Notes under the pieces: generated by a model
The model's input: only the letters and a program-made list of their open reading frames with translations
Database searches by the model: none
Told to the model about the DNA's origin: nothing
NCBI RefSeq assembly: GCF_036321535.1
Contig: NC_087436.1
Coordinates: 64,544,001-64,608,000, forward strand
Direction: 5' to 3'
Length of the DNA: 64,000 bases
Origin: Camelus dromedarius
Taxonomy: Eukaryota
In this document: positions 35,597 through 49,357 of the stretch, piece by piece
Layout of the letters: every line of letters begins with the position of its first letter
Position numbering within the stretch: the first letter of the stretch is position 1
Translations under genes and position numbers: made by a program

Positions 35597-36685
35597 TTTG
35601 TTTTTTTTGTTTTTTTTTTTTTTTAATTAAAGTACAGTCAATGACAATGCATCAGTTTCTGGTGTACAGCACAATGTCCCAGCCATGCATATATACACAG
35701 ATATTCATTTTTATATTCTTTTTCATTAAAGGTTATTACAAGATATTGAATATAGTTCCCTGTGCTATACAGAGGAAACTTTTAAAAAATGTATTTATAT
35801 ATTTGTAGTGGCTAACATTTGCAACTCTCAAACTCCCAAATGTATCCCTTCCCACCCCCTTTCCCTGGTAACCATAAGATTTTTTACTATGTCTGGGAGT
35901 CTATTCCTGTTCTGTAGATGACATCATTAGTGTTGCCTTTTTTTCTTTTTTTTAGATTCCACATATGAGTGATATCATATGGTATTTTTCTTTCTCTTTC
36001 TGGCTTACTTCACTTAGAATGACAATCTCCATGTCCATCTATGTTGCTGCAAGTGACATTATTTTATTCTTTTTTATGGCCAAGTAGTATTCCATTGTAT
36101 AGATATACCACAGCTTCTTTATCCAGTCCTCTGTCAATGGACATTTAGGTTGTTTCCATGTCTTGGCTATTGTTAACAGTGCTGCTAAGAACACTGGGGT
36201 GCGTGTTTCTTTTTGAATTAAAATTCCCCCTGGATATATGCCCAGGAGTGGGATTGCTGTATCTTAGGGTAAGTCTATTTTTAGTCTTTTGAGGAATCTC
36301 CATAATGGCTGCACCAAACTACATTCCCACCAACAGTGTAGGAGGGTTCCCTTTTCTCCACATCCTCTCCAGCATTTACCATTCACAGACTTTCAAATGA
36401 TGGCCATTCTGACTGGTGTGAGGTGGTACTTCATTGTAGTTTTGGTTTACATTTCTCTGATAATTAGTGATATTGAGCATTTTTTCATGTGCCTGTTGAT
36501 CATTTGTATTTCTTCCTTGGAGAATTGCTTGTTTAGGTCTTCCTCTCATCTTTGGCTTGGGTTGTTTGTTTTTTCTTTTTAAGTTGTATGAGCTGTTTAT
36601 ATATTCTGGGAATTAAGCCTTTGTCAATCACATCATTTGCAAATATTTTCTCCCATTCCATAGGTTGTCATTTTGTTTTGCTTAT
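35597..36685 (-). mobile_element. Young 5'-truncated L1 (ORF2 end plus 3' UTR)
   Basis: Poly-T head on the plus strand, then the same 3' UTR/ORF2 sequence as the copies at 11.2-11.7 kb and 47.4-48.1 kb. Confidence 0.93.
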
Positions 36686-39105: not shown

Positions 39106-40379
39106 AACTCCTAGACTATATTTGAGGAAAAAAAATCTTTTTTCTAATGAAAATAAATAATAAATCTGCTAATACATTTTAGCTATTTAAAATAATTCAC
39201 ATAGAGGAAGATTATCCAATATACTAATACATTTATTTTTGTAATGGTTGTTTCTTGATGTGATTCCTTTTATTCTGTCACATTATGGATAGTATGGACC
39301 ATTATTTTTATAGTCAGTTTTCTCTGGACCTAAGCATTATCTGAGAGAGATATTTGATTGACTAATAACTGTATCTGTTAGCAGTTAGCAATTCCCTCCC
39401 CCCACAAAGCTACTTAAAAACAACAGCAGCAGCAATTCTAAATCTCAGATCTCAGTAGCTTCAAAAAATTATTAGGCTTTTACCTTCCACCAACATGGAA
39501 CCAGTAGCACTGTACTTGAGACAGGATTTTTAAGATACGATGTGTATCTGGAAGGCTGTTGTGCAGCATTTCAATCTACCAAAATAACCAACTAGTTTGT
39601 AATCAATACATTACATTAAATAAGGATTGAGTCCAGTCATAAAACAGCTTTTTTCTCATCCTCCCGTGTTTCTTCCCTGCCCTTATAGCTCCCTTCGCCC
39701 CACAATCATCGTTTCAGTCCTAAGAAGAATCCAATTTTTGAAATTCCCTATGATAGGAAAATTTCCAAACTTCATTGACAGTAAAATTTCACACTTTCCC
39801 TCTCCTCATTGCTCTAAGTGGAAAGCTTGCCGTGCGAAGTGGATGCCAAGCCTGCTTCCTCTCCATTTCCCCACCTGATGCTTCCCCTTGTCTTCTGTGG
39901 GCTGGAATGCCTGTAGCTCCTAAATGGTTCAGCATTGGAGGTGAAGAGGGGACGACAGATAAGGCACAGGAAAGGTCTTATGTGACAGGTTTTAATGGAG
40001 TAAAGAATAAATTCTCCTCTGGAAGATGGATAAAGATGAATCTCTGTCTTGGGCAGATTTTTAAAAACTGAAAAGTCCCATTGAGAAATATCTGACTGTA
40101 TTTCATGTGAAAACAAATGATGCATGTTCTCCCAGCTGGATGACTGCTTACATTTCCTCCTTGTACCCCTGGAAATTCAGTTGTATACCTCTTCTGCTGA
40201 TATAATTTTTCACCTCTAAAAAGTCACCTTGGACTTCCAGACCTCACACTGTCTCTGAGAAACTTACACAGCCTTGCTTTCATCTTTAGAGTAGAACTGT
40301 AGCTAACACCCTATGCATCTTGATCTTTCTTCCTCTGCTTTTTCCCCAAACTCCAGGGCGTATATATTAACCCTCCCAT

Positions 40380-40831
40380 TGTTATGGAAACGACAGGCCA
40401 GTCAAGAAACAAGCACCACTCGGAGGGTTGGAGTACTCAGATGTATTACGCCGGCGGGCTCAGAGGGGCTTCTGCTCCGAAGCTCTGAGCACCTTCAAGA
40501 CGTGCACATGAGGTTTTATAGGGTAAAGTACAAGCATGGGGTATTCGGCCAATAGGCATGGAACAGCTTTAGCAGCATTATCATCACAAAAGTGGAGGCG
40601 GGGAGGCAGCAAACCAACATTCCAAAGCCAGATATGTATCTTTGAGAATCCAGCTGGCTAGCAAAAAACATAAACAGCAAACCAACACTAATTAACTTAG
40701 ATTTACAACTTAGTCCAGCAGAACTCAGATTGGTATTCCAATACTTAGACTTGTTAGCCCAGCCCAGCCTCTCCTTCACATTCCTAGACCTGTGAGTTAT
40801 CTTGTTAGACCAGCCCAGCTTTTCCTTCACA
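40380..40831 (-). repeat. 3' LTR of the provirus
   Basis: Same length as the 5' LTR, with 10 substitutions and no indels by manual alignment. Preceded by the PPT. Confidence 0.97.
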
Positions 40832-40843
40832 TTCCCCCCTCTT
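40832..40843 (-). promoter_or_regulatory. Polypurine tract
   Basis: Minus strand AAGAGGGGGGAA directly abuts the TG of the 3' LTR. Confidence 0.95.
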
Positions 40844-40858
40844 GGTGCTTTCACAACT

Positions 40859-41449
40859 CTAGTTGGAGTAAGCATCATCACTTATCTGTTGCAGGGGCTC
40901 ATAATTGGAGGCTAACATCTGAAGTTATATAACCTCTATCCACTCACTGACCAAGCGGGTCCAGAAGTTTAGGACACAGGGCCCAAATAGCAGAACTGCA
41001 AAAAATCAAGAGTAAGGGACCTATGAACGGTGCCAGCCAGGAGGTCCAGCCCCAGGGGCCTGTCCATGGGCTCTTATTTAAAATATGTTTTCTCTTTTTA
41101 CTCGGTCTTGTAACTCTTGAACCATCTCTCTGACAATTTCTGATTGATTGGCATAAAAACAGCACTCTTCATTGTAGGAAGAGGCATAGTCCCCCCTCTT
41201 TGGCCATGAGTAAGTTACAGACCCCTCCTGTTTTGTAAAACCACCTCGGCCAGAGAGTCAATCTGATTTTGCAGAGTTCCCAGGGTTTCTGCTATTTGTT
41301 GGAGATCATGGCTGAATTCACTTGTAAGCTGGAAATACAGGTTGGTACATGGACCATTTGTCACCCGGTTCTGTGCAGGTGCATTGTACAGCCAAGGAGA
41401 GTGAGGGCATTAGCGTCAGTAACATCAGCCTTATGATTATCTTAGACAT
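40859..41449 (-). pseudogene. env: ERV env: signal peptide plus TM subunit, SU deleted
   Basis: MSKIIIRLMLLTLMPSLSLA-VQCTC leader, then a jump near 41348 to TM. TM has the heptad repeat and ISD (LQNQIDSLAEVVLQNRRGL), CX6CC (CLFLQ/EECCFYANQS) and the membrane anchor WLAPFIGPLLLI...FGPC. Several frameshifts. Confidence 0.93.
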
Positions 41450-41613
41450 GATGCTGCAGTGATGGCACTAATTATAACAAGATATAAAATAGCTATCAGG
41501 ATTCTATGGCCTATGTTCCAGTTAGGTGTGGCGGCGCTAGCTAGCCCCACTGCTAATACGCAGGCTAGTATGGCAAACAAGGAAATAGGCAAGGGAGCAC
41601 AAAAGAAATACAT
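41437..41613 (-). CDS. Small intact ORF (58 aa) with two hydrophobic segments between pol and env; putative accessory membrane protein
   Basis: MYFFCAPLPISLFAILACVLAVGLASAATPNWNIGHRILIAILYLVIISAITAASCLR*. It is shorter than any ORF in the provided track. It starts 23 nt after the pol stop and overlaps the env ATG. Confidence 0.5.
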   Translation of the reverse strand: MYFFCAPLPISLFAILACVLAVGLASAATPNWNIGHRILIAILYLVIISAITAASCLR

Positions 41614-41636
41614 TTAACAGCTGCGTTGAGCTTTCC

Positions 41637-41894
41637 TCAAGCTTCGGCCGTGTGTTGACTAGCCAGCTTCTGGATGTGGCTAGAGCAGGGCTTGTCGATC
41701 CTTTTCTGGTCCCTCTTGATCTTGATCTTGAGCGGGTCTCCCGGGACACACTCAATTTTCCAGGGACCCTCTGTCTGAGGTGAAGTCGCTCTCTTAACCC
41801 TGGAGTGGTGGATCCAAGGGATGACTCCTGCAACTTTAACAGCGGTAGGGGTGGTTAATACCACTAAATATGGTCCCTTACAGTGAATAATGGC
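41637..41894 (-). pseudogene. pol: ERV integrase C-terminal (GPY/F) fragment
   Basis: KGPYLVVLTTPTAVKVAGVIPWIHHSRVKRA...DPLKIKI, fused directly to the protease fragment. Confidence 0.92.
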
Positions 41895-42132
41895 ATGTGT
41901 CACTAGATGGCCCCCTACTCGACAGGATTGTGGTTGGCAGAAATGGCGGGCAGTTGAGTCCCCAGTAGCCCCTATAATAGTCGCCTTTTTCTTGGTCAGG
42001 GGGGCTACAGGTTTGGTCACCACAGACAGAATACTCTGCTCCTGGGTCTACCATAAAAGTCATTGGTTGGCCCCCTATAAACATTTTGACCTTGGGCTCC
42101 CGGGGGCCCAGGGGCAGGGACCGCGGTCTCTC
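41895..42132 (-). pseudogene. pro: ERV protease, N-terminal part
   Basis: In frame after the gag amber codon: EPKVKMFIGGQPMTFMVDPGAEYSV (active site DTG is DPG here). After a frameshift it reads VTKPVAPLTKKKATIIGATG...VGGHLVTH. Confidence 0.92.
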
Positions 42133-43896
42133 CTATTCTGAGTCGACTCCAGCCAGTCCGATGTGATTACTGGCTGGTGGCTCCAGCTGATAAGTAGGCC
42201 TTTTGAGGGGTGCTCTCTTTCCATCCTTTCTGTTTGGGCACTCGTTCTTCCAGTGTCCTGTCTCCCAGCAGTATGCGCACTGGTCTCGGCCCAGGGGCAT
42301 CCGTGGTTGGGGTCCCCTCTTCCGGGGTGGTGCAGGATTCTGGCTGAAGCTTGTTTTTCCCAGGGCTGCTGAAAGGAGTGCGGCTTTCTGCTTCATTCTC
42401 TGGTCTGCTTCTCGTTGGGCTTCCCGTTCTCGGTTTACAAAAACTTTGCTACTTCCAGCAGCTGTGTAGCGTTCATCCCTGCGAATCCATCCAGTTTTTG
42501 GAGTTTCTGGCGTATATCTGGGTGTGATTGGGCTACGAAGGCAGCGTTGACCATCCGCTGGTTTTCTTGGGCCTCAGAATCAAAAGGAGTGTAGACTTGG
42601 AATGCTTCACATAGTCTCTCATAGAAGTCAGTGGGGGTCTCGTCTGGCCTCTGGGTCACCATGGTCGTTTTAGACATGTTAGTTGGCTTCTTGGCTCCTG
42701 CTCTTAGCCCTTGTAGGATGGCTTCCTGGTACTCACACAGCACTTCTCTTCCTTCTTGGGTGTTAAAGTCCCAATCTGGTCTGGTGTCAGGGGCATGTGT
42801 CATGGCCCACCCCTCAACATCCATTGTGTCCCCAGGGGCTCGGCCCTGCAGCCATTTTCGTGCTTCAGTGAGAATGCATCTCCTCTCCTCTGTATTGAAA
42901 AGAGTCAAAAGCACCTGGAGGACATCCTCCCAGGTGGGCTGGTGAGAATGGAAGATAGACTCTACGAGGTAAATCATAGCCTGCGGCTTGACAGCCTGAT
43001 TACAGTCGTCACCACCAAGTAGAAATCATCGTGGGCTGGACAGAGACCAAATATTTGTATGACTTTGCAGCAGAGCCCAAGGCTGTCCCAGCATCGCTTC
43101 AGGACTGGGCAGGGGCCGGCGCTCCCCGACAGTTGCCATGGAGGCGGCGGCGGCTGAGGTGGAGGCGGTGCCGGGGCTGCGGGGGCTGCTGCTGCTGCTG
43201 TTGCTGGGCGGCTTTTCAGAGTAGGAAGGAGTATGATGGCACCAATTAAGAAGGGCTGTAGTGCTAAAGGATTGGTAGCAGAGTACGGGGTGCCCGGGCC
43301 GAACAGTCCCGTTTTCCCCAACTTGTTGCAGCCCTTGTGTCTCCTGCAGCGGCATTTGGAGGGCCGGTGGTGCTGGCTTCCCGGCTTGTGCTGAGCGGAG
43401 TCTCCTTCCTACCGGCTCAGGCTGGGGGCTGGGCTCTGCCTCTGGGTCCTCAGGCTGGGGAGGTGTTGGTGCCCCGGGGGCATACGGAGGGGGTAGACAT
43501 ATCTGTCTTCTGCATCTCCATGGAAAATAGGCTTTTTTCTCTCTGTCTTTTTGGCCTGGACTGGCTGGGCTGCTAATATCTTGCATTGTCCAGGTCCATT
43601 GGAGCAGAACCGAATCCATGGGGTAGAGTCTGGGCGATATTTAGCCAGGAGTCAATGTAAGGGAATTGATCTGGGTGGCCTGGGGTTCCAGTGATTATTT
43701 GATAGACTGCTCACACTGTTGCTAGGTCCAGAGTTCCTCCTGAGGGCCACTAGACTCCAAAGGCCGGCCATTCAAGCTCACACAAAGTGCGGAGCCTGCC
43801 AGGGGTCATTCAAATTCCACAGTCTCTTGAGAACCCCTTTTTGAAATTCTTAATCATGCAGTCTAGAGTGGTGGGTTTCGACTTAGAGCCTCCCAT
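42133..43896 (-). pseudogene. gag: ERV gag (MA-p12-CA-NC), disrupted
   Basis: MGGSKSKP myristoylation start, LCELEWPAFGV*WP matrix motif, PPPY late domain, CA HQPTWED, MHR QRPDETPTDFYERLCEAF, single CCHC knuckle [14 protein letters not shown] and an amber TAG at 42133-42135. It has 3 stops in MA, at least 3 frameshifts and a 225-nt host insert. Confidence 0.96.
42990..43207 (-). pseudogene. ATXN7: Captured fragment of host ataxin-7 mRNA inside gag
   Basis: Translates, in shifting frames, to AQQQQQQQPPQP / [33 protein letters not shown] / [23 protein letters not shown] / DCNQAVKPQA. This is colinear with the recalled ATXN7 N-terminus (polyQ...[30 protein letters not shown]...[35 protein letters not shown]). 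Confidence 0.95.
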
Positions 43897-44380: not shown

Positions 44381-45018
44381 TGGCTGTCTATGTCCTTTTC
44401 CCTCCCAGTGTGGCCACCCTGTGCCGGTGTCGCAGACAAGACAAGGGAGGGTTTTCGTTGCGTCCGCCTGGCCGCTCCCCTCGCGGGGACGAAGGTGCCT
44501 CTTAGCTTTGGCGGGTCAGTATAAGCTGCTGACTCCGATCGGGACCCTGAGGGACCGATACCGCCCTGAGCCGTATGAGGTCACCATGGAACCGCAGGTT
44601 GGGACTCACTCGAACTCCGTAGCAGAATGCCGTGGAGCTACAAACTCGAGCCTGATCGCACACTTCACAGGCCGCTCATTCACTCACACACACACACACA
44701 GAGGTTAACAACATTCTTCCCACCAATACCAATATCCTGTTTCCTGTAGGAGAGGATCAGCCTCCTCTTCTGTCCAATGGGACAGGACCTGATACCTCCC
44801 GGGGGTTCCTCCCTTGTCCGGATGGCCACCTGGTGAGTCTGTCCGTCCCTCCATGGAGTCTGGATCTGGTTGTAGCCCAGCCACCCGGGGGCCGAGTTGC
44901 TGTCATGAAAGAGAACCCGAAATACCGTCGGGCGGCGCCATCTCGTTCGCTGCCGGAATCCCGTCCCCCGGTCGGCCGGAGCCACCAGTCCGGCGGCTCA
45001 GGGGGCCGGCGTGGTTGT

Positions 45019-45036
45019 ATATCACTGGGGCCTCCA
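45019..45036 (-). promoter_or_regulatory. Primer binding site, tRNA-Thr-like
   Basis: Minus strand TGGAGGCCCCAGTGATAT, 4 nt after the 5' LTR. It matches 16/18 to the recalled complement of a tRNA-Thr 3' end (TGGAGGCCCCAGCGAGAT). Confidence 0.85.
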
Positions 45037-45040
45037 GAAA

Positions 45041-45492
45041 TGTTACGGAAACAACAGGCCAGTCAAGAAACAAGCACCACTCGGAGGGTTGGAGTACTCA
45101 GATGTATTACGCCGGCGGGCTCAGAGGGGCTTCTGCTCCGAAGCTCTGAGCACCTTCAAGATGTGCACATGAGGTTTTATAGGGTAAAGTACAAGCATGG
45201 GGTATTCGGCCAATAGGCATGGAACAGCTTTAGCAGCATTACCATCACAAAAGTGGAGGTGGGGAGACACCAAACCAACATTCCAAAGCCAGATATGTAT
45301 CTTTGAGAATCCAGCTGGCTAGCAAAAAACATAAACAGCAAACCAACACTAATTAACTTAGATTTACAAGTTAGTCCAGCAGAACTCAGATCGGTATTCC
45401 AATACTTAGACTTGTTAGCCCAGCCCAGCCTCTCCTTCACATTCCTAGACCTGTGAGTTATCTTGTTAGACCAGCTCAGCTTTTCCTTCACA
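45041..45492 (-). repeat. 5' LTR of the provirus
   Basis: Minus strand reads TGTGAAGG...CGTAACA and is followed by the PBS. TATAAAA at 45175-45181, CCAAT at 45210-45214 (plus strand), R hairpin at 45119-45151. Confidence 0.97.
45175..45181 (-). promoter_or_regulatory. LTR TATA box (second copy at 40514-40520)
   Basis: TATAAAA on the minus strand, about 25 nt upstream of the R-region hairpin. Confidence 0.8.
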
Positions 45493-47381
45493 CCATGAAT
45501 CCTTTCTCAATAGGTTTAAATGAAAGGGAAGCAATGCCACAACTCTTCAGTACCTTAAATACACTTGACGGTGGCACAGCTCACCCTTCTCACTGTAGTG
45601 TGTTCTTCATGGTCTCATCACTTGTGCAAGCTCTTACTCAAGAACATCTGCAATCTACTGACATCAGATTTGTCTGCTCTGGAGCTAGTCAGTCTGAACT
45701 TAGCGTATATGTTCTCTCCGTCAGGAGGAACTCAGATGCTATTGGTACTGGCCTAAAGCTACTTCACTCACTTCCTTCCTGTCCATAGTAAGGCTGGAAA
45801 GCACTTATATTTCAAAATGCCTCCAACCTTTCCAGTATGCCTTTTGAAACATCATAATTAAGGAACTCCCTGTACAGCCAGACTTCACTGAAGAGTCCTT
45901 CCACGTCATGGCATTAACTAAAATGCATGTCTCCCCCGAGCACACCCTCAAGCCCACTTGAGGGAAGATTATGTTCTTAGTCTGTCGTAATTCTGTTTTA
46001 GGGATTAAAGGTAGTGTCACATTGATCAACCATCCACGTGCTTGCTGAATAACAAAATTAAACAAGGCTAAAGAAGAACCTTCTGAAGCTCTTGGCATTC
46101 AAGTATATTCCCTGAGGGTCAACTATAGGCACAGTAGATATTATATACAGACTCTATAAAAATCATTTTGACTTTGTTGCAGCTTCTTTTCATTACAACA
46201 TAGAAAATTCTTGTGTACTTTGCCTTCAAATTCTATTTCCTAGATTTAAAAACATTGAGAAGGTAGTTTGATGTTAGCCAATATCTATTTTTTAACACAT
46301 ACACTAAAGAATATTTGCATTATAACTGGTTAGATTAAACCAAACAGAAACTTACTTCTAAATGTAAAATTTTTTGAGATAATCGTATCAACACCCAAAG
46401 GTAATTTAAAGAATTAAAAGGAGGAGGAAGACCATTATAAGGGGAAAGAGAGGCAGGAGGTGGAAAAGATAACTGTGTGGGAAGGTATTCAGCCAGGTGA
46501 ACTAGGAGTAGGAATTGAGAAAGGTAGTAAGGAATGAAGCCAGAGCAAATTTCACTTGGTTAGGTAGAGATCCATCTTAGGAGTCAGACTTATTTTGACT
46601 CCCTGCAGTACTTCTGAGAAGTTGCTTTTGGTAGTTACTAGCATTGCCCTTGCAATGATGCAGTACTTTTTTTTTCTTCCAAACCATTACCAAACAAATG
46701 AATTTAACTGAAGTTGATTTTAAAGAGGATCTAATGTAGTCTAAGATCAGATACTGTGTATAGACTTCAAAGTAGGACTGTAAAATCAACTTGAATTGTG
46801 CATTAATGGTATACAGAGTCTGTTCAGCAACACATTAGACTAGTAAGTTTGTCAAATGTTTACCATAAAATATGAGCAAAGAGTTTTATTTTGCTGTTTG
46901 AAGTTGTTCCACTGAGAAAGAGCAGTATCATTTTTTAAAGTTATTTGAATAACCCTTATCTTAAAGTTTTACCAAATAACTTTGGAATACTGGTAATGGA
47001 TTTTTGCCTTCATGATAAAGGTGAATTTATATACCTTTTCATCTTCATAGGAAATGTCACTTAATCAAAATGTTGCCATTGTGTGTTTTTGATGACAGTT
47101 ACTTGAACATATACCATATTCCAAAAAAGAAATAAAACTAAAATTATTTTATAAAACGGTACAGCAGAGAACCTTTTAAAATTATTTTCACATTCTAGAT
47201 GTCTTTCATAATACGCAGGTTGATATGAAATGTCAGTCTTTCATTAGGTCAGCATAATATATTACAGATTGATTTTTGTTGTTGTTAACAATTTTCTGAT
47301 TAAATATATAGGATCATAAGTGGTAATATACTTAATATAAATAAGTTATTATTTTGATGTGATAAATGCAATATTATTCTT

Positions 47382-48152
47382 TTTTTTGTCTATGTATTTT
47401 TATTGAAGTATAGTTAGTTTACAATGTTGTGTCAATTTCTGGTATATACTATAATGCTTCAGTCATACATGAACATACTTATATTAGTTTTCATATTCTT
47501 TTTCACCATAAATTACTACGAGATATGGAATATAGTTCCCTACTGCTATACAGTATGGACTTGTTATTTATCTATTTTATAGATATTAGTATCTTCAAAT
47601 CTCGAACTCCCAATTTATCCCTCCCACCCCCACTCCGTAACCATAAGTTTGTTTTCTATGTCTGTGAGTCTGTTTCTGTTTTGAAAATAAGTTCATTTGT
47701 CTTTTTTTTTTTTTTTTTTTAGATTACACATGTAAGTGATATCATATGATATTTTTCTTTCTCTTTCTGGCTTACTTCACTTAGAATGATGATCTCCAGG
47801 TCCATCCATATTGCTGCAAATGTCATTATTTTTGTCTGTTTTTATGGCTGAGTAGTATTCCATTGTATAAATATACTACAACTTCCTTATTCAGTCATCT
47901 GTTGATGGACATTTAGGTTGTTTCCATGTCTTGGCTATTGTAAATACTGCTGCTATGAACATTGGGGTGCATGTGTCTTTTTGACTTAAGTTTCCCTCTG
48001 GATATATGCCCAGGAGTGGGATTGCTGAATCATATGGTTAGTCTATTTTTAGTTTTTGAGGAATCTCCATACTGTTTCCATAATGGCTGCACCAAACTGA
48101 ATTCCCACCAGTAATGTAGGAGTGTTCCCTTTTCTCCAGATCCTCTCCAGCA
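47382..48152 (-). mobile_element. Young 5'-truncated L1
   Basis: Flanked by the perfect repeat TGATAAATGCAATATTATTCTT (47360-47381 and 48153-48174). L1 3' UTR/ORF2 sequence. Confidence 0.95.
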
Positions 48153-49357
48153 TGATAAATGCAATATTATTCTTGATAACATTGCTATATAAGGTTTTAT
48201 CTCAGTAAAATAAGAAATTTGAGACAAATATATAAGTCCCAATAAAATAAGAAATTTGAGACAAACTCAAAGAACATAAGATAGTCTGTATAGAACAATA
48301 CGAGCAGAAGGGTTTTTTTCCCTCTCTGTTGATTACTTAGCAAATTTACATAATTCAATCCAGAAATGCAAGCTATACCTTTTAGCATGTATTAGTATTT
48401 ATACTCCTTTCCAGTGCTATGCCAGTTACTCAATTTTTACATGGTTATAATAATTAGACACATATTGTTGGATCTTGTATGTTTTCTCTTTTTTGTCTTA
48501 GATCTTGTGTAAACTCTTAGATATATCTGTGTAGCTTATGTGTTTTTCACTTTTAGTAGCAATAATCTATGGCCATTTAAGCCATTCTCAAACTGTGTGT
48601 GTATGTCTCTTCATCTCCTCCCTAATATACAGCATGCTATACATCACTCTATATAAATATATGGATTTCTTTTGTAAAATTTCCTTGTGATATAGTCCCT
48701 TAAATGGAAATATGAAAAGAAAGGTTATAATTTTTTTCCATTAACAAACTAATAATAGGACTGCATTTTAAAATGCATACTACCTTTTCTATTACCAGTG
48801 CCATTATTACCCTATTGTCCTTTAACTCTACTATTTGTTATAACTTCCAAATTATTCTTTAAACCTCTTTCTTTTTTTCCTTTTATATTCTATATTCTAT
48901 AGCCAAGTTATTCTCCTGAAAACAGCACTTCATTCTCTGCTCATAAACCTCAACAGAAGTTTTAATTTCTAATTTAGTAGGCAATTACAGTCCTTAGCAA
49001 GTCATTCAAATTTTTGGAAAGTATCACTTCACCCTACTTTTGTAGCTTTGCAACCCAAATTTAAATGCCTTCCATTGGTACTGTTAGTCATCAGAGTACT
49101 GCCAATCATTCAAGAACCATTTGAAAGGTCTGTCTTTAACTTACCAAACAGATACCAAGTGCCTACTGTGTAGAAGGCATTGAGAGATTCAAAAATGAAA
49201 GAAAAACAAAACACAACATAATTTCTGTTCTTGTGTTACTCACTGCACTGATTTGAGATTTAAAATGACACAGTACTATAATTGTTGACAGCCTAAGTAG
49301 AAATTGGTTTGTTTTGAATGATGAGTAGGGGCACACTAGAGATAAGAAGTTAGGGGC

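Follow-up and report, generated by a model that had tools for sequence, protein, structure and literature searches.

Gamma-like retroviruses are the textbook 'simple' retroviruses and are usually thought to manage without accessory genes of the kind considered here. Among other systems, the lentiviral Vpu has one N-terminal helix and a long phosphorylated cytoplasmic tail with a phospho-serine motif, and the S2 gene of EIAV is located between pol and env. ERV3/HERV-I-type proviruses may have a similar short hydrophobic frame at this place. For HIV vpu/env, PMC4306834 presents a weak Kozak context with leaky scanning as one published model and shunting as the other. The study of EIAV S2 (10.1101/065078) describes a very small protein that acts at membranes against SERINC5 and carries Gly2 myristoylation and ExxxLL or YxxL motifs. 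In two further papers, extra proteins of gamma-like retroviruses are described at other positions, namely the glycoGag of MLV, located at gag (PMC5120145), and an extra ORF of HERV-T that is pre-gag (PMC5388530). Insect LTR retrotransposons that lack env encode sORF2/FAST-like proteins of 63-107 aa with one helix, a myristoylation motif and a polybasic patch (PMC11952523), and CrocERV29 carries a captured KIT-ligand ORF between pol and env (PMC4299795).

Here we describe an ORF of 58 codons, ORF58, that lies between pol and env in an endogenous retrovirus within a 64,000-nucleotide stretch of Camelus dromedarius DNA, referred to below as the window. We think it probable that ORF58 represents a true accessory gene of a gamma-like retrovirus clade, of 58-59 codons and positioned right behind pol in several lineages and ahead of env. 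It resembles HIV-1 vpu, as presented in PMC4306834, in being a small membrane-protein ORF before env with a weak start context, here as read from genomic sequence rather than from an mRNA, and it resembles EIAV S2 in being a very small retroviral accessory protein that would reside at membranes. It shares with the sORF2/FAST-like group the character of a short transmembrane accessory ORF, some of which lie downstream of pol (PMC11952523). The glycoGag and HERV-T proteins are likewise extra proteins of gamma-like retroviruses, but they lie before or within gag and not between pol and env; the pre-gag HERV-T ORF was therefore rejected as a counterpart of ORF58. CrocERV29 does have an extra ORF between pol and env, but that ORF is a host gene, whereas ORF58 has no recognisable host, Pfam or PDB relative. 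No published description of ORF58 was found in the full-text literature searched, a body that leaves most subscription papers, supplements and repeat databases outside; PMC13461226, 10.1101/2021.11.23.469661, PMC12970346, PMC12679747 and PMC4133949 yielded nothing that bears on it.

The element that carries ORF58 is a deleted, multi-copy gamma-like (class I) endogenous retrovirus with the following features, given in transcriptional order.

45041..45492, minus strand: 5' LTR (TG..CA), with target-site duplication ATGG at 45493-45496
45019..45036, minus strand: primer-binding site, from the sequence, which we take to be of the tRNA-Thr type
42133..43896, minus strand: broken gag with stops, frameshifts and an insert (Gag_p30 E 5.5e-47 plus a zinc knuckle; stop map)
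41890..42132, minus strand: protease remnant (RVP E 0.019, weak)
41637..41888, minus strand: integrase C-terminal tail, the pol end, behind a large pro-RT-IN deletion (MLVIN_C E 2.6e-10)
41633..41694, minus strand: pol-end block of about 60 nt in common with a sister family, in which the pol stop and a putative splice acceptor lie (loose ends at positions 41633 and 41691-41694)
41437..41613, minus strand: ORF58, a 58-aa predicted two-helix membrane protein and candidate accessory gene
41326..41449, minus strand: env start with a signal-peptide-like N-terminus, truncated by a deletion near 41325
40944..41325, minus strand: broken gamma-type env TM remnant (TLV_coat E 2e-11 and 3e-8)
40380..40831, minus strand: 3' LTR, with ATGG at 40376-40379

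The two LTRs differ at 10 of 452 nt and are bounded by the 4-bp ATGG target-site duplication. Class I features comprise these paired LTRs, a capsid of MLV type (MLV capsid chains E 1e-37, besides the Gag_p30 match), an MLV-type integrase C-terminus and a gamma-type Env TM. The element has no RT and has lost the greater part of pro, IN and SU; its gag carries at least 5 breaks, and at the deletion near 41325 two contigs start, one with loose letters beyond. Several further observations concern the element and its surroundings. A tandem repeat of about 51 nt opens each LTR (45411-45496 and 40750-40835), and a leader ORF before gag (44941-44705, minus strand) has one in-frame stop at 44905 and ends in a Trp/Cys-rich tail; Pfam gave no match for its second part, and it may be a HERV-T-like pre-gag ORF. 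Within gag, an insert of roughly 200 nt, GC-rich and containing a CAG run (43220-43000, minus strand), interrupts the capsid region at its start. Two frames of this insert match ataxin-7, at residues 53-98 (E 1.4e-9) and 125-150 (E 7e-6), and we read it as a captured fragment of a host ATXN7 transcript; a short shared peptide at its 3' junction suggests a template switch. Elsewhere in the window, 36039-36263 and 47959-48266 are LINE-1 ORF2 3' remnants, which mark the host as a mammal.

At 41613-41437 on the minus strand, the translation is exactly the 58-aa peptide quoted in the earlier note, and the flanking pol stop (41639-41637) and the overlapping env-type ATG (41449) reported there are both in place. 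The ORF58 ATG follows the pol stop by 23 nt, and the end of ORF58 overlaps env by 13 nt in a different frame. The prediction of two membrane helices held up in hydropathy windows of 19 residues, with residues 10-28 and 39-57 each reaching a mean of at least 2.46, and in this respect ORF58 is the top two-helix ORF among the 93 ATG ORFs of at least 50 aa in the window. As a chance test, the 200-nt gap was shuffled 20,000 times with dinucleotides preserved: 182 shuffles contained an ATG ORF of at least 58 aa and 8 contained two helices at 1.8, while none equalled the two-helix hydropathy score of ORF58, with the reservation that this test was post-hoc. ORF58 had also been called the only uninterrupted unit in the element. 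It is indeed the sole complete gene-like unit; other stop-free stretches do exist, namely the 83 codons of the integrase tail and the env signal region, each truncated by deletions. By a hand estimate from the 1.76 kb of gag, which carry at least 5 lesions, a clean stretch of 177 nt has a chance of about 0.6.

To see how ORF58 varies among copies, contigs of four public runs were aligned to 41280-41900 (97-242 contigs in each run, with coverage of all 30 bins), and the alignment reveals a multi-copy family. In one RNA run the contigs cover 30 of 30 bins, and since DNA is possibly included and the strand is not given, this was not used as evidence of expression. Indels inside ORF58 occurred in 3 rows, representing 2 events with 1-2 contigs each, and in the four runs no indel row fell between 41437 and 41565; the separate frames of ORF58 and env are therefore the state of the family. 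Of 200 variant rows the best 40 were considered, and in these the 14 variants with most support in ORF58 comprised 5 synonymous and 9 non-synonymous changes and 0 stops, a 5:9 ratio equal to that of neutral drift and thus without synonymous bias within the family, and the integrase tail did no better, with 3 of 18 in the same set. The family looks like a defective element that has been copied without selection on its proteins. Because variation in the family is neutral, the intactness of ORF58 in this copy, which had been offered as an argument, carries little weight. Host co-option as a reading of the open frame was rejected on the same ground together with the chance of about 0.6, and in this copy ORF58 is carried along by a defective element, showing nothing that would indicate use by the host.

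This neutral variation also agrees with a reading in which ORF58 is a vestige or a product of chance, either the collapsed signal peptide and anchor of an old env or a T-rich spacer, inherited without selection. In its favour, helix 1 in this copy terminates in a signal-peptidase-like Ala-Ser-Ala, and deletions joining the env start to TM do occur in the family, where loose ends at 41393-41395 are present in all four runs and mark an alternative form leaving the env signal region, likely a second deletion type of the family. We nevertheless consider a vestige highly improbable, in view of the comparison between lineages given below. The alignment further contains a sister family (4-9 contigs per run) that has the pol-end block in common and then diverges at 41633, so that not all close relatives carry the ORF58 stretch at 80% identity; in some relatives ORF58 may be absent or strongly altered. 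Around the block of about 60 nt at 41633-41694 families differ on both sides, and the block is present in tandem duplicate in four proteins of the lineage termed E below (P0016, P0051, P0076 and P0097). It is possibly both a splice acceptor and a recombination hot spot.

The search for homologs outside the family began from protein sequence. A word-indexed protein search with P0001 returned 2 candidates, none of which was scored, and the same type of search with the env N-terminus and with longer lengths returned none. By contrast, phmmer against 1.84 billion protein representatives yielded 4 homologs of ORF58 (E 1e-6 to 7e-4), and a six-row profile gave 53 matches among 1842 candidates, 51 of them at E<=1e-5 and 4 of them the clusters of the query rows themselves. 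These homologs are 30-50% identical to ORF58 and represent three or more further lineages. Every one stems from a metagenome assembly and lacks a meaningful name; they are probably present there as host DNA. In a tree of 35 rows, which has few columns and leaves many forks open, a lineage of 59-aa proteins (J) and a lineage of 58-aa proteins (E) are separated, a smaller group stands beside E, and the window protein is alone on a long branch. A distant homolog, P0075 (E 5e-6, branch 0.98), has different upstream sequence and may mark a further lineage.

The boundaries of the ORF are kept across these lineages. A Met occupies the shared start in 44 of the 53 homologs; the shared stop ends 35 of the 53, the remaining 18 being cut short or out of frame, and 31 of those 35 have, like P0001, a Cys third from the end. 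The position is kept as well. For example, in P0076 an integrase tail 46% identical to that of the window directly precedes the ORF; P0016 and P0111 similarly run from integrase-like sequence into the ORF, and the pol-end block peptide is found upstream of it in 15 of the 53 homologs. What follows the ORF is different in each lineage: an env-like Met lies about 6 codons past the ORF stop in lineage J (P0065, a frameshifted copy) and about 27 codons past it in lineage E (P0006, also a frameshifted copy). The signal peptides of the window and of lineage J do not align, and the downstream signal-like peptides of J and E have no Pfam match, their identity as env being by appearance only. The ORF thus retains a stop of its own and remains attached to pol, and the sequence after it varies. 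A frameshifted env leader, which would account for the ORF as part of a longer env N-terminus, was rejected, since the stop is kept in 35 of 53, the env-like start shifts and only copies with a frameshift run on to the env-like Met. The conservation in relatives that the earlier note had called for is therefore found for length, start, stop and position, bearing in mind that homologs picked by protein similarity in this frame favour open and conservative copies and miss lineages that lost the ORF. In this sense the proposal of an accessory membrane protein encoded on the env mRNA gains support.

DNA of the homologs was not found in the viral, metagenome or genome contigs searched, the alignment being too divergent for a pattern search, and selection was therefore assessed at the protein level. 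Identity alone proves little, because the integrase tail, read in a non-coding frame, likewise shows 49% identity between lineages. We instead built a neutral codon model from the ORF58 of the window and took expectations at 40% identity, under which the mean BLOSUM62 score of mismatches is -0.73 to -0.78 and helix hydropathy is 1.3-1.5. In 26 full-length homologs, hand-chosen from the 53 matches and their clusters, the mismatch mean was -0.02 and helix hydropathy was retained at 2.35 and 1.80, compared with an expectation of 1.1-1.5. Within lineages, after 3 near-duplicates were left out of this control, mismatches averaged -0.58 in J (15 rows) and -0.56 in E (8 rows), against a neutral value of about -0.6, whereas mismatches between lineages averaged -0.09, +0.10 and -0.29 against about -0.7 to -0.8 expected. 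The difference of between- minus within-lineage scores is 0.48 (column bootstrap 0.10-0.85, for pairs that share ancestry), and the J-E interval of -0.77 to 0.19 has the neutral value inside. A neutral frame at 40% identity, with indels uncounted, would be stop-free with a frequency of 0.2-0.3 and would keep its ATG with a frequency of 0.27-0.29; that both are seldom retained under neutrality tells against a vestige, as does the agreement of start, stop and length in three lineages with conservative changes. Taken as protein sequence, this pattern points to purifying selection in replicating viruses followed by neutral decay after insertion. Support for an accessory gene comes from conservation between lineages, not from intactness in this copy, and the ORF family is real, likely selected and apparently unannotated.

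The leader in which ORF58 lies suggests how it could be translated. The 439 nt that precede the env ATG contain a single AUG, that of ORF58, against 6.6 expected (P about 0.01). The ORF58 start has T at -3 and +4, a weak context, and A occupies position -3 of the env start; the Met-Tyr of lineage J is preceded by a Gln codon (P0005, P0052 and P0077), so that the start is weak there too. The AG at 41681-41680, on the border of the block common to the families, is a candidate splice acceptor, one of several AGs with equal scores. A spliced env mRNA with its acceptor near 41680 would present ORF58 for translation first, and leaky scanning would carry ribosomes onward to Env, as in one model for HIV vpu/env. 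The same arrangement would also suit a regulatory uORF, whose frame is kept to tune the translation of env while the peptide is minor or acts only in the ribosome or translocon: ORF58 has the first AUG, its context is weak, it adjoins or overlaps the env start, and the depletion of AUG in the leader fits. Tuning, however, needs neither 58-59 codons nor two helices, invariant loop residues or a terminal Cys, and the conservative changes and retained hydropathy point to a protein, so that we regard a purely regulatory uORF as very unlikely.

If ORF58 is an accessory gene, its product would be a simple one. AlphaFold2 places helices at 8-28 and 34-57, with a pLDDT of 78 from the single sequence and 70 with 27 sequences, and a helical hairpin with both termini on one side of the membrane is predicted. 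This hairpin would have a short Pro/Trp/Gly loop and Cys near both termini, predicted as sites of acylation or disulfide formation, and no soluble domain, so that any action must go via the membrane. Two-helix viroporins have a comparable size and hairpin shape, and a basic cluster is usual in such pores. We see it as unlikely that ORF58 acts as a viroporin, that is, as an oligomeric hairpin pore aiding assembly or release, a reading that makes the same claim about the gene and assigns it another function. The predicted size and shape of the hydrophobic hairpin match, and polar Ser, Thr, Gly and Cys residues lie inside the helices; on the other side there is no sequence or fold match, charged residues are few (1-3 K/R) and the usual basic cluster is absent.

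Database comparisons identified no relative for this hairpin. In Pfam, 0 of 27 family members pass, weak matches such as Wzz (E 0.03) being due to chance, and an 'O-antigen length determinant' label attached by the source to two homologs was set aside as chance in the same way. A PDB sequence search with the family gave 0 matches. Foldseek against viral models gave 0 at E<=0.001, a bare hairpin giving no usable fold match, and the first ESM Atlas matches, at 0.87 and 0.89, are leads only and form no family. ORF58 was rejected as a homolog of HIV-1 Vpu, from which it differs in having two helices, no tail and no sequence match, with no Pfam match in the 27 members. It was rejected as a homolog of S2, since Gly2 and ExxxLL are absent in the 27-row alignment and ORF58 is almost wholly hydrophobic, and as a FAST/sORF2 protein, since no Gly2 (MGxxxS/T) appears in the 27 rows and ORF58 has two helices and no polybasic patch, the 5 proteins checked having 1-4 scattered K/R.

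As to function, where our confidence is lower than for the gene and its layout, the relation to Env is informative. The arenavirus stable signal peptide is 58 aa long, with two hydrophobic segments and a Cys near its end. ORF58 might similarly act as a leader, translated on its own, that binds Env or serves as its chaperone, given that it would be on the same mRNA, is of similar size and layout and, in 31 of 35 homologs, has Cys as its third-last residue. We find this partnership scarcely probable: in none of the three lineages does it share a frame with env, the position of the env-like start varies from -13 nt to about +6 and about +27 codons relative to the ORF stop, and the signal peptide of the window does not align with that of lineage J. 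The ORF remained beside pol while the env signal peptides that follow it have nothing in common, which makes service to any single Env improbable; a general role at the membrane of budding or assembly would fit better. Most likely, a tail-less two-helix protein of this kind would act on other membrane proteins through its helices. By analogy, because small accessory proteins of other retroviruses (S2, glycoGag) counter such factors, we would tentatively guess that the job of ORF58 is to neutralise a host membrane restriction factor.

The extra proteins of gamma-like retroviruses found in print sit at gag (glycoGag and pre-gag ORFs). If our reading of ORF58 is true, the vpu/env layout arose in the gamma-like group too, with an unrelated protein. 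ORF58 thereby defines an unannotated protein family missed by gene finders, which may serve as a marker to trace recombination between pol and env and as a small probe for the host membrane defences faced by these viruses. A wider picture, which we put forward as doubtful, is that of a widespread gamma-like clade in several mammal groups that would have carried a gene in the position of vpu through successive swaps of env, using the hairpin against a host membrane defence, and whose many unannotated copies in mammalian genomes, some of them open, are maybe translated from env mRNAs. For co-opted env genes of such viruses, translation would be affected, since their mRNAs may carry an ORF58-type frame first.
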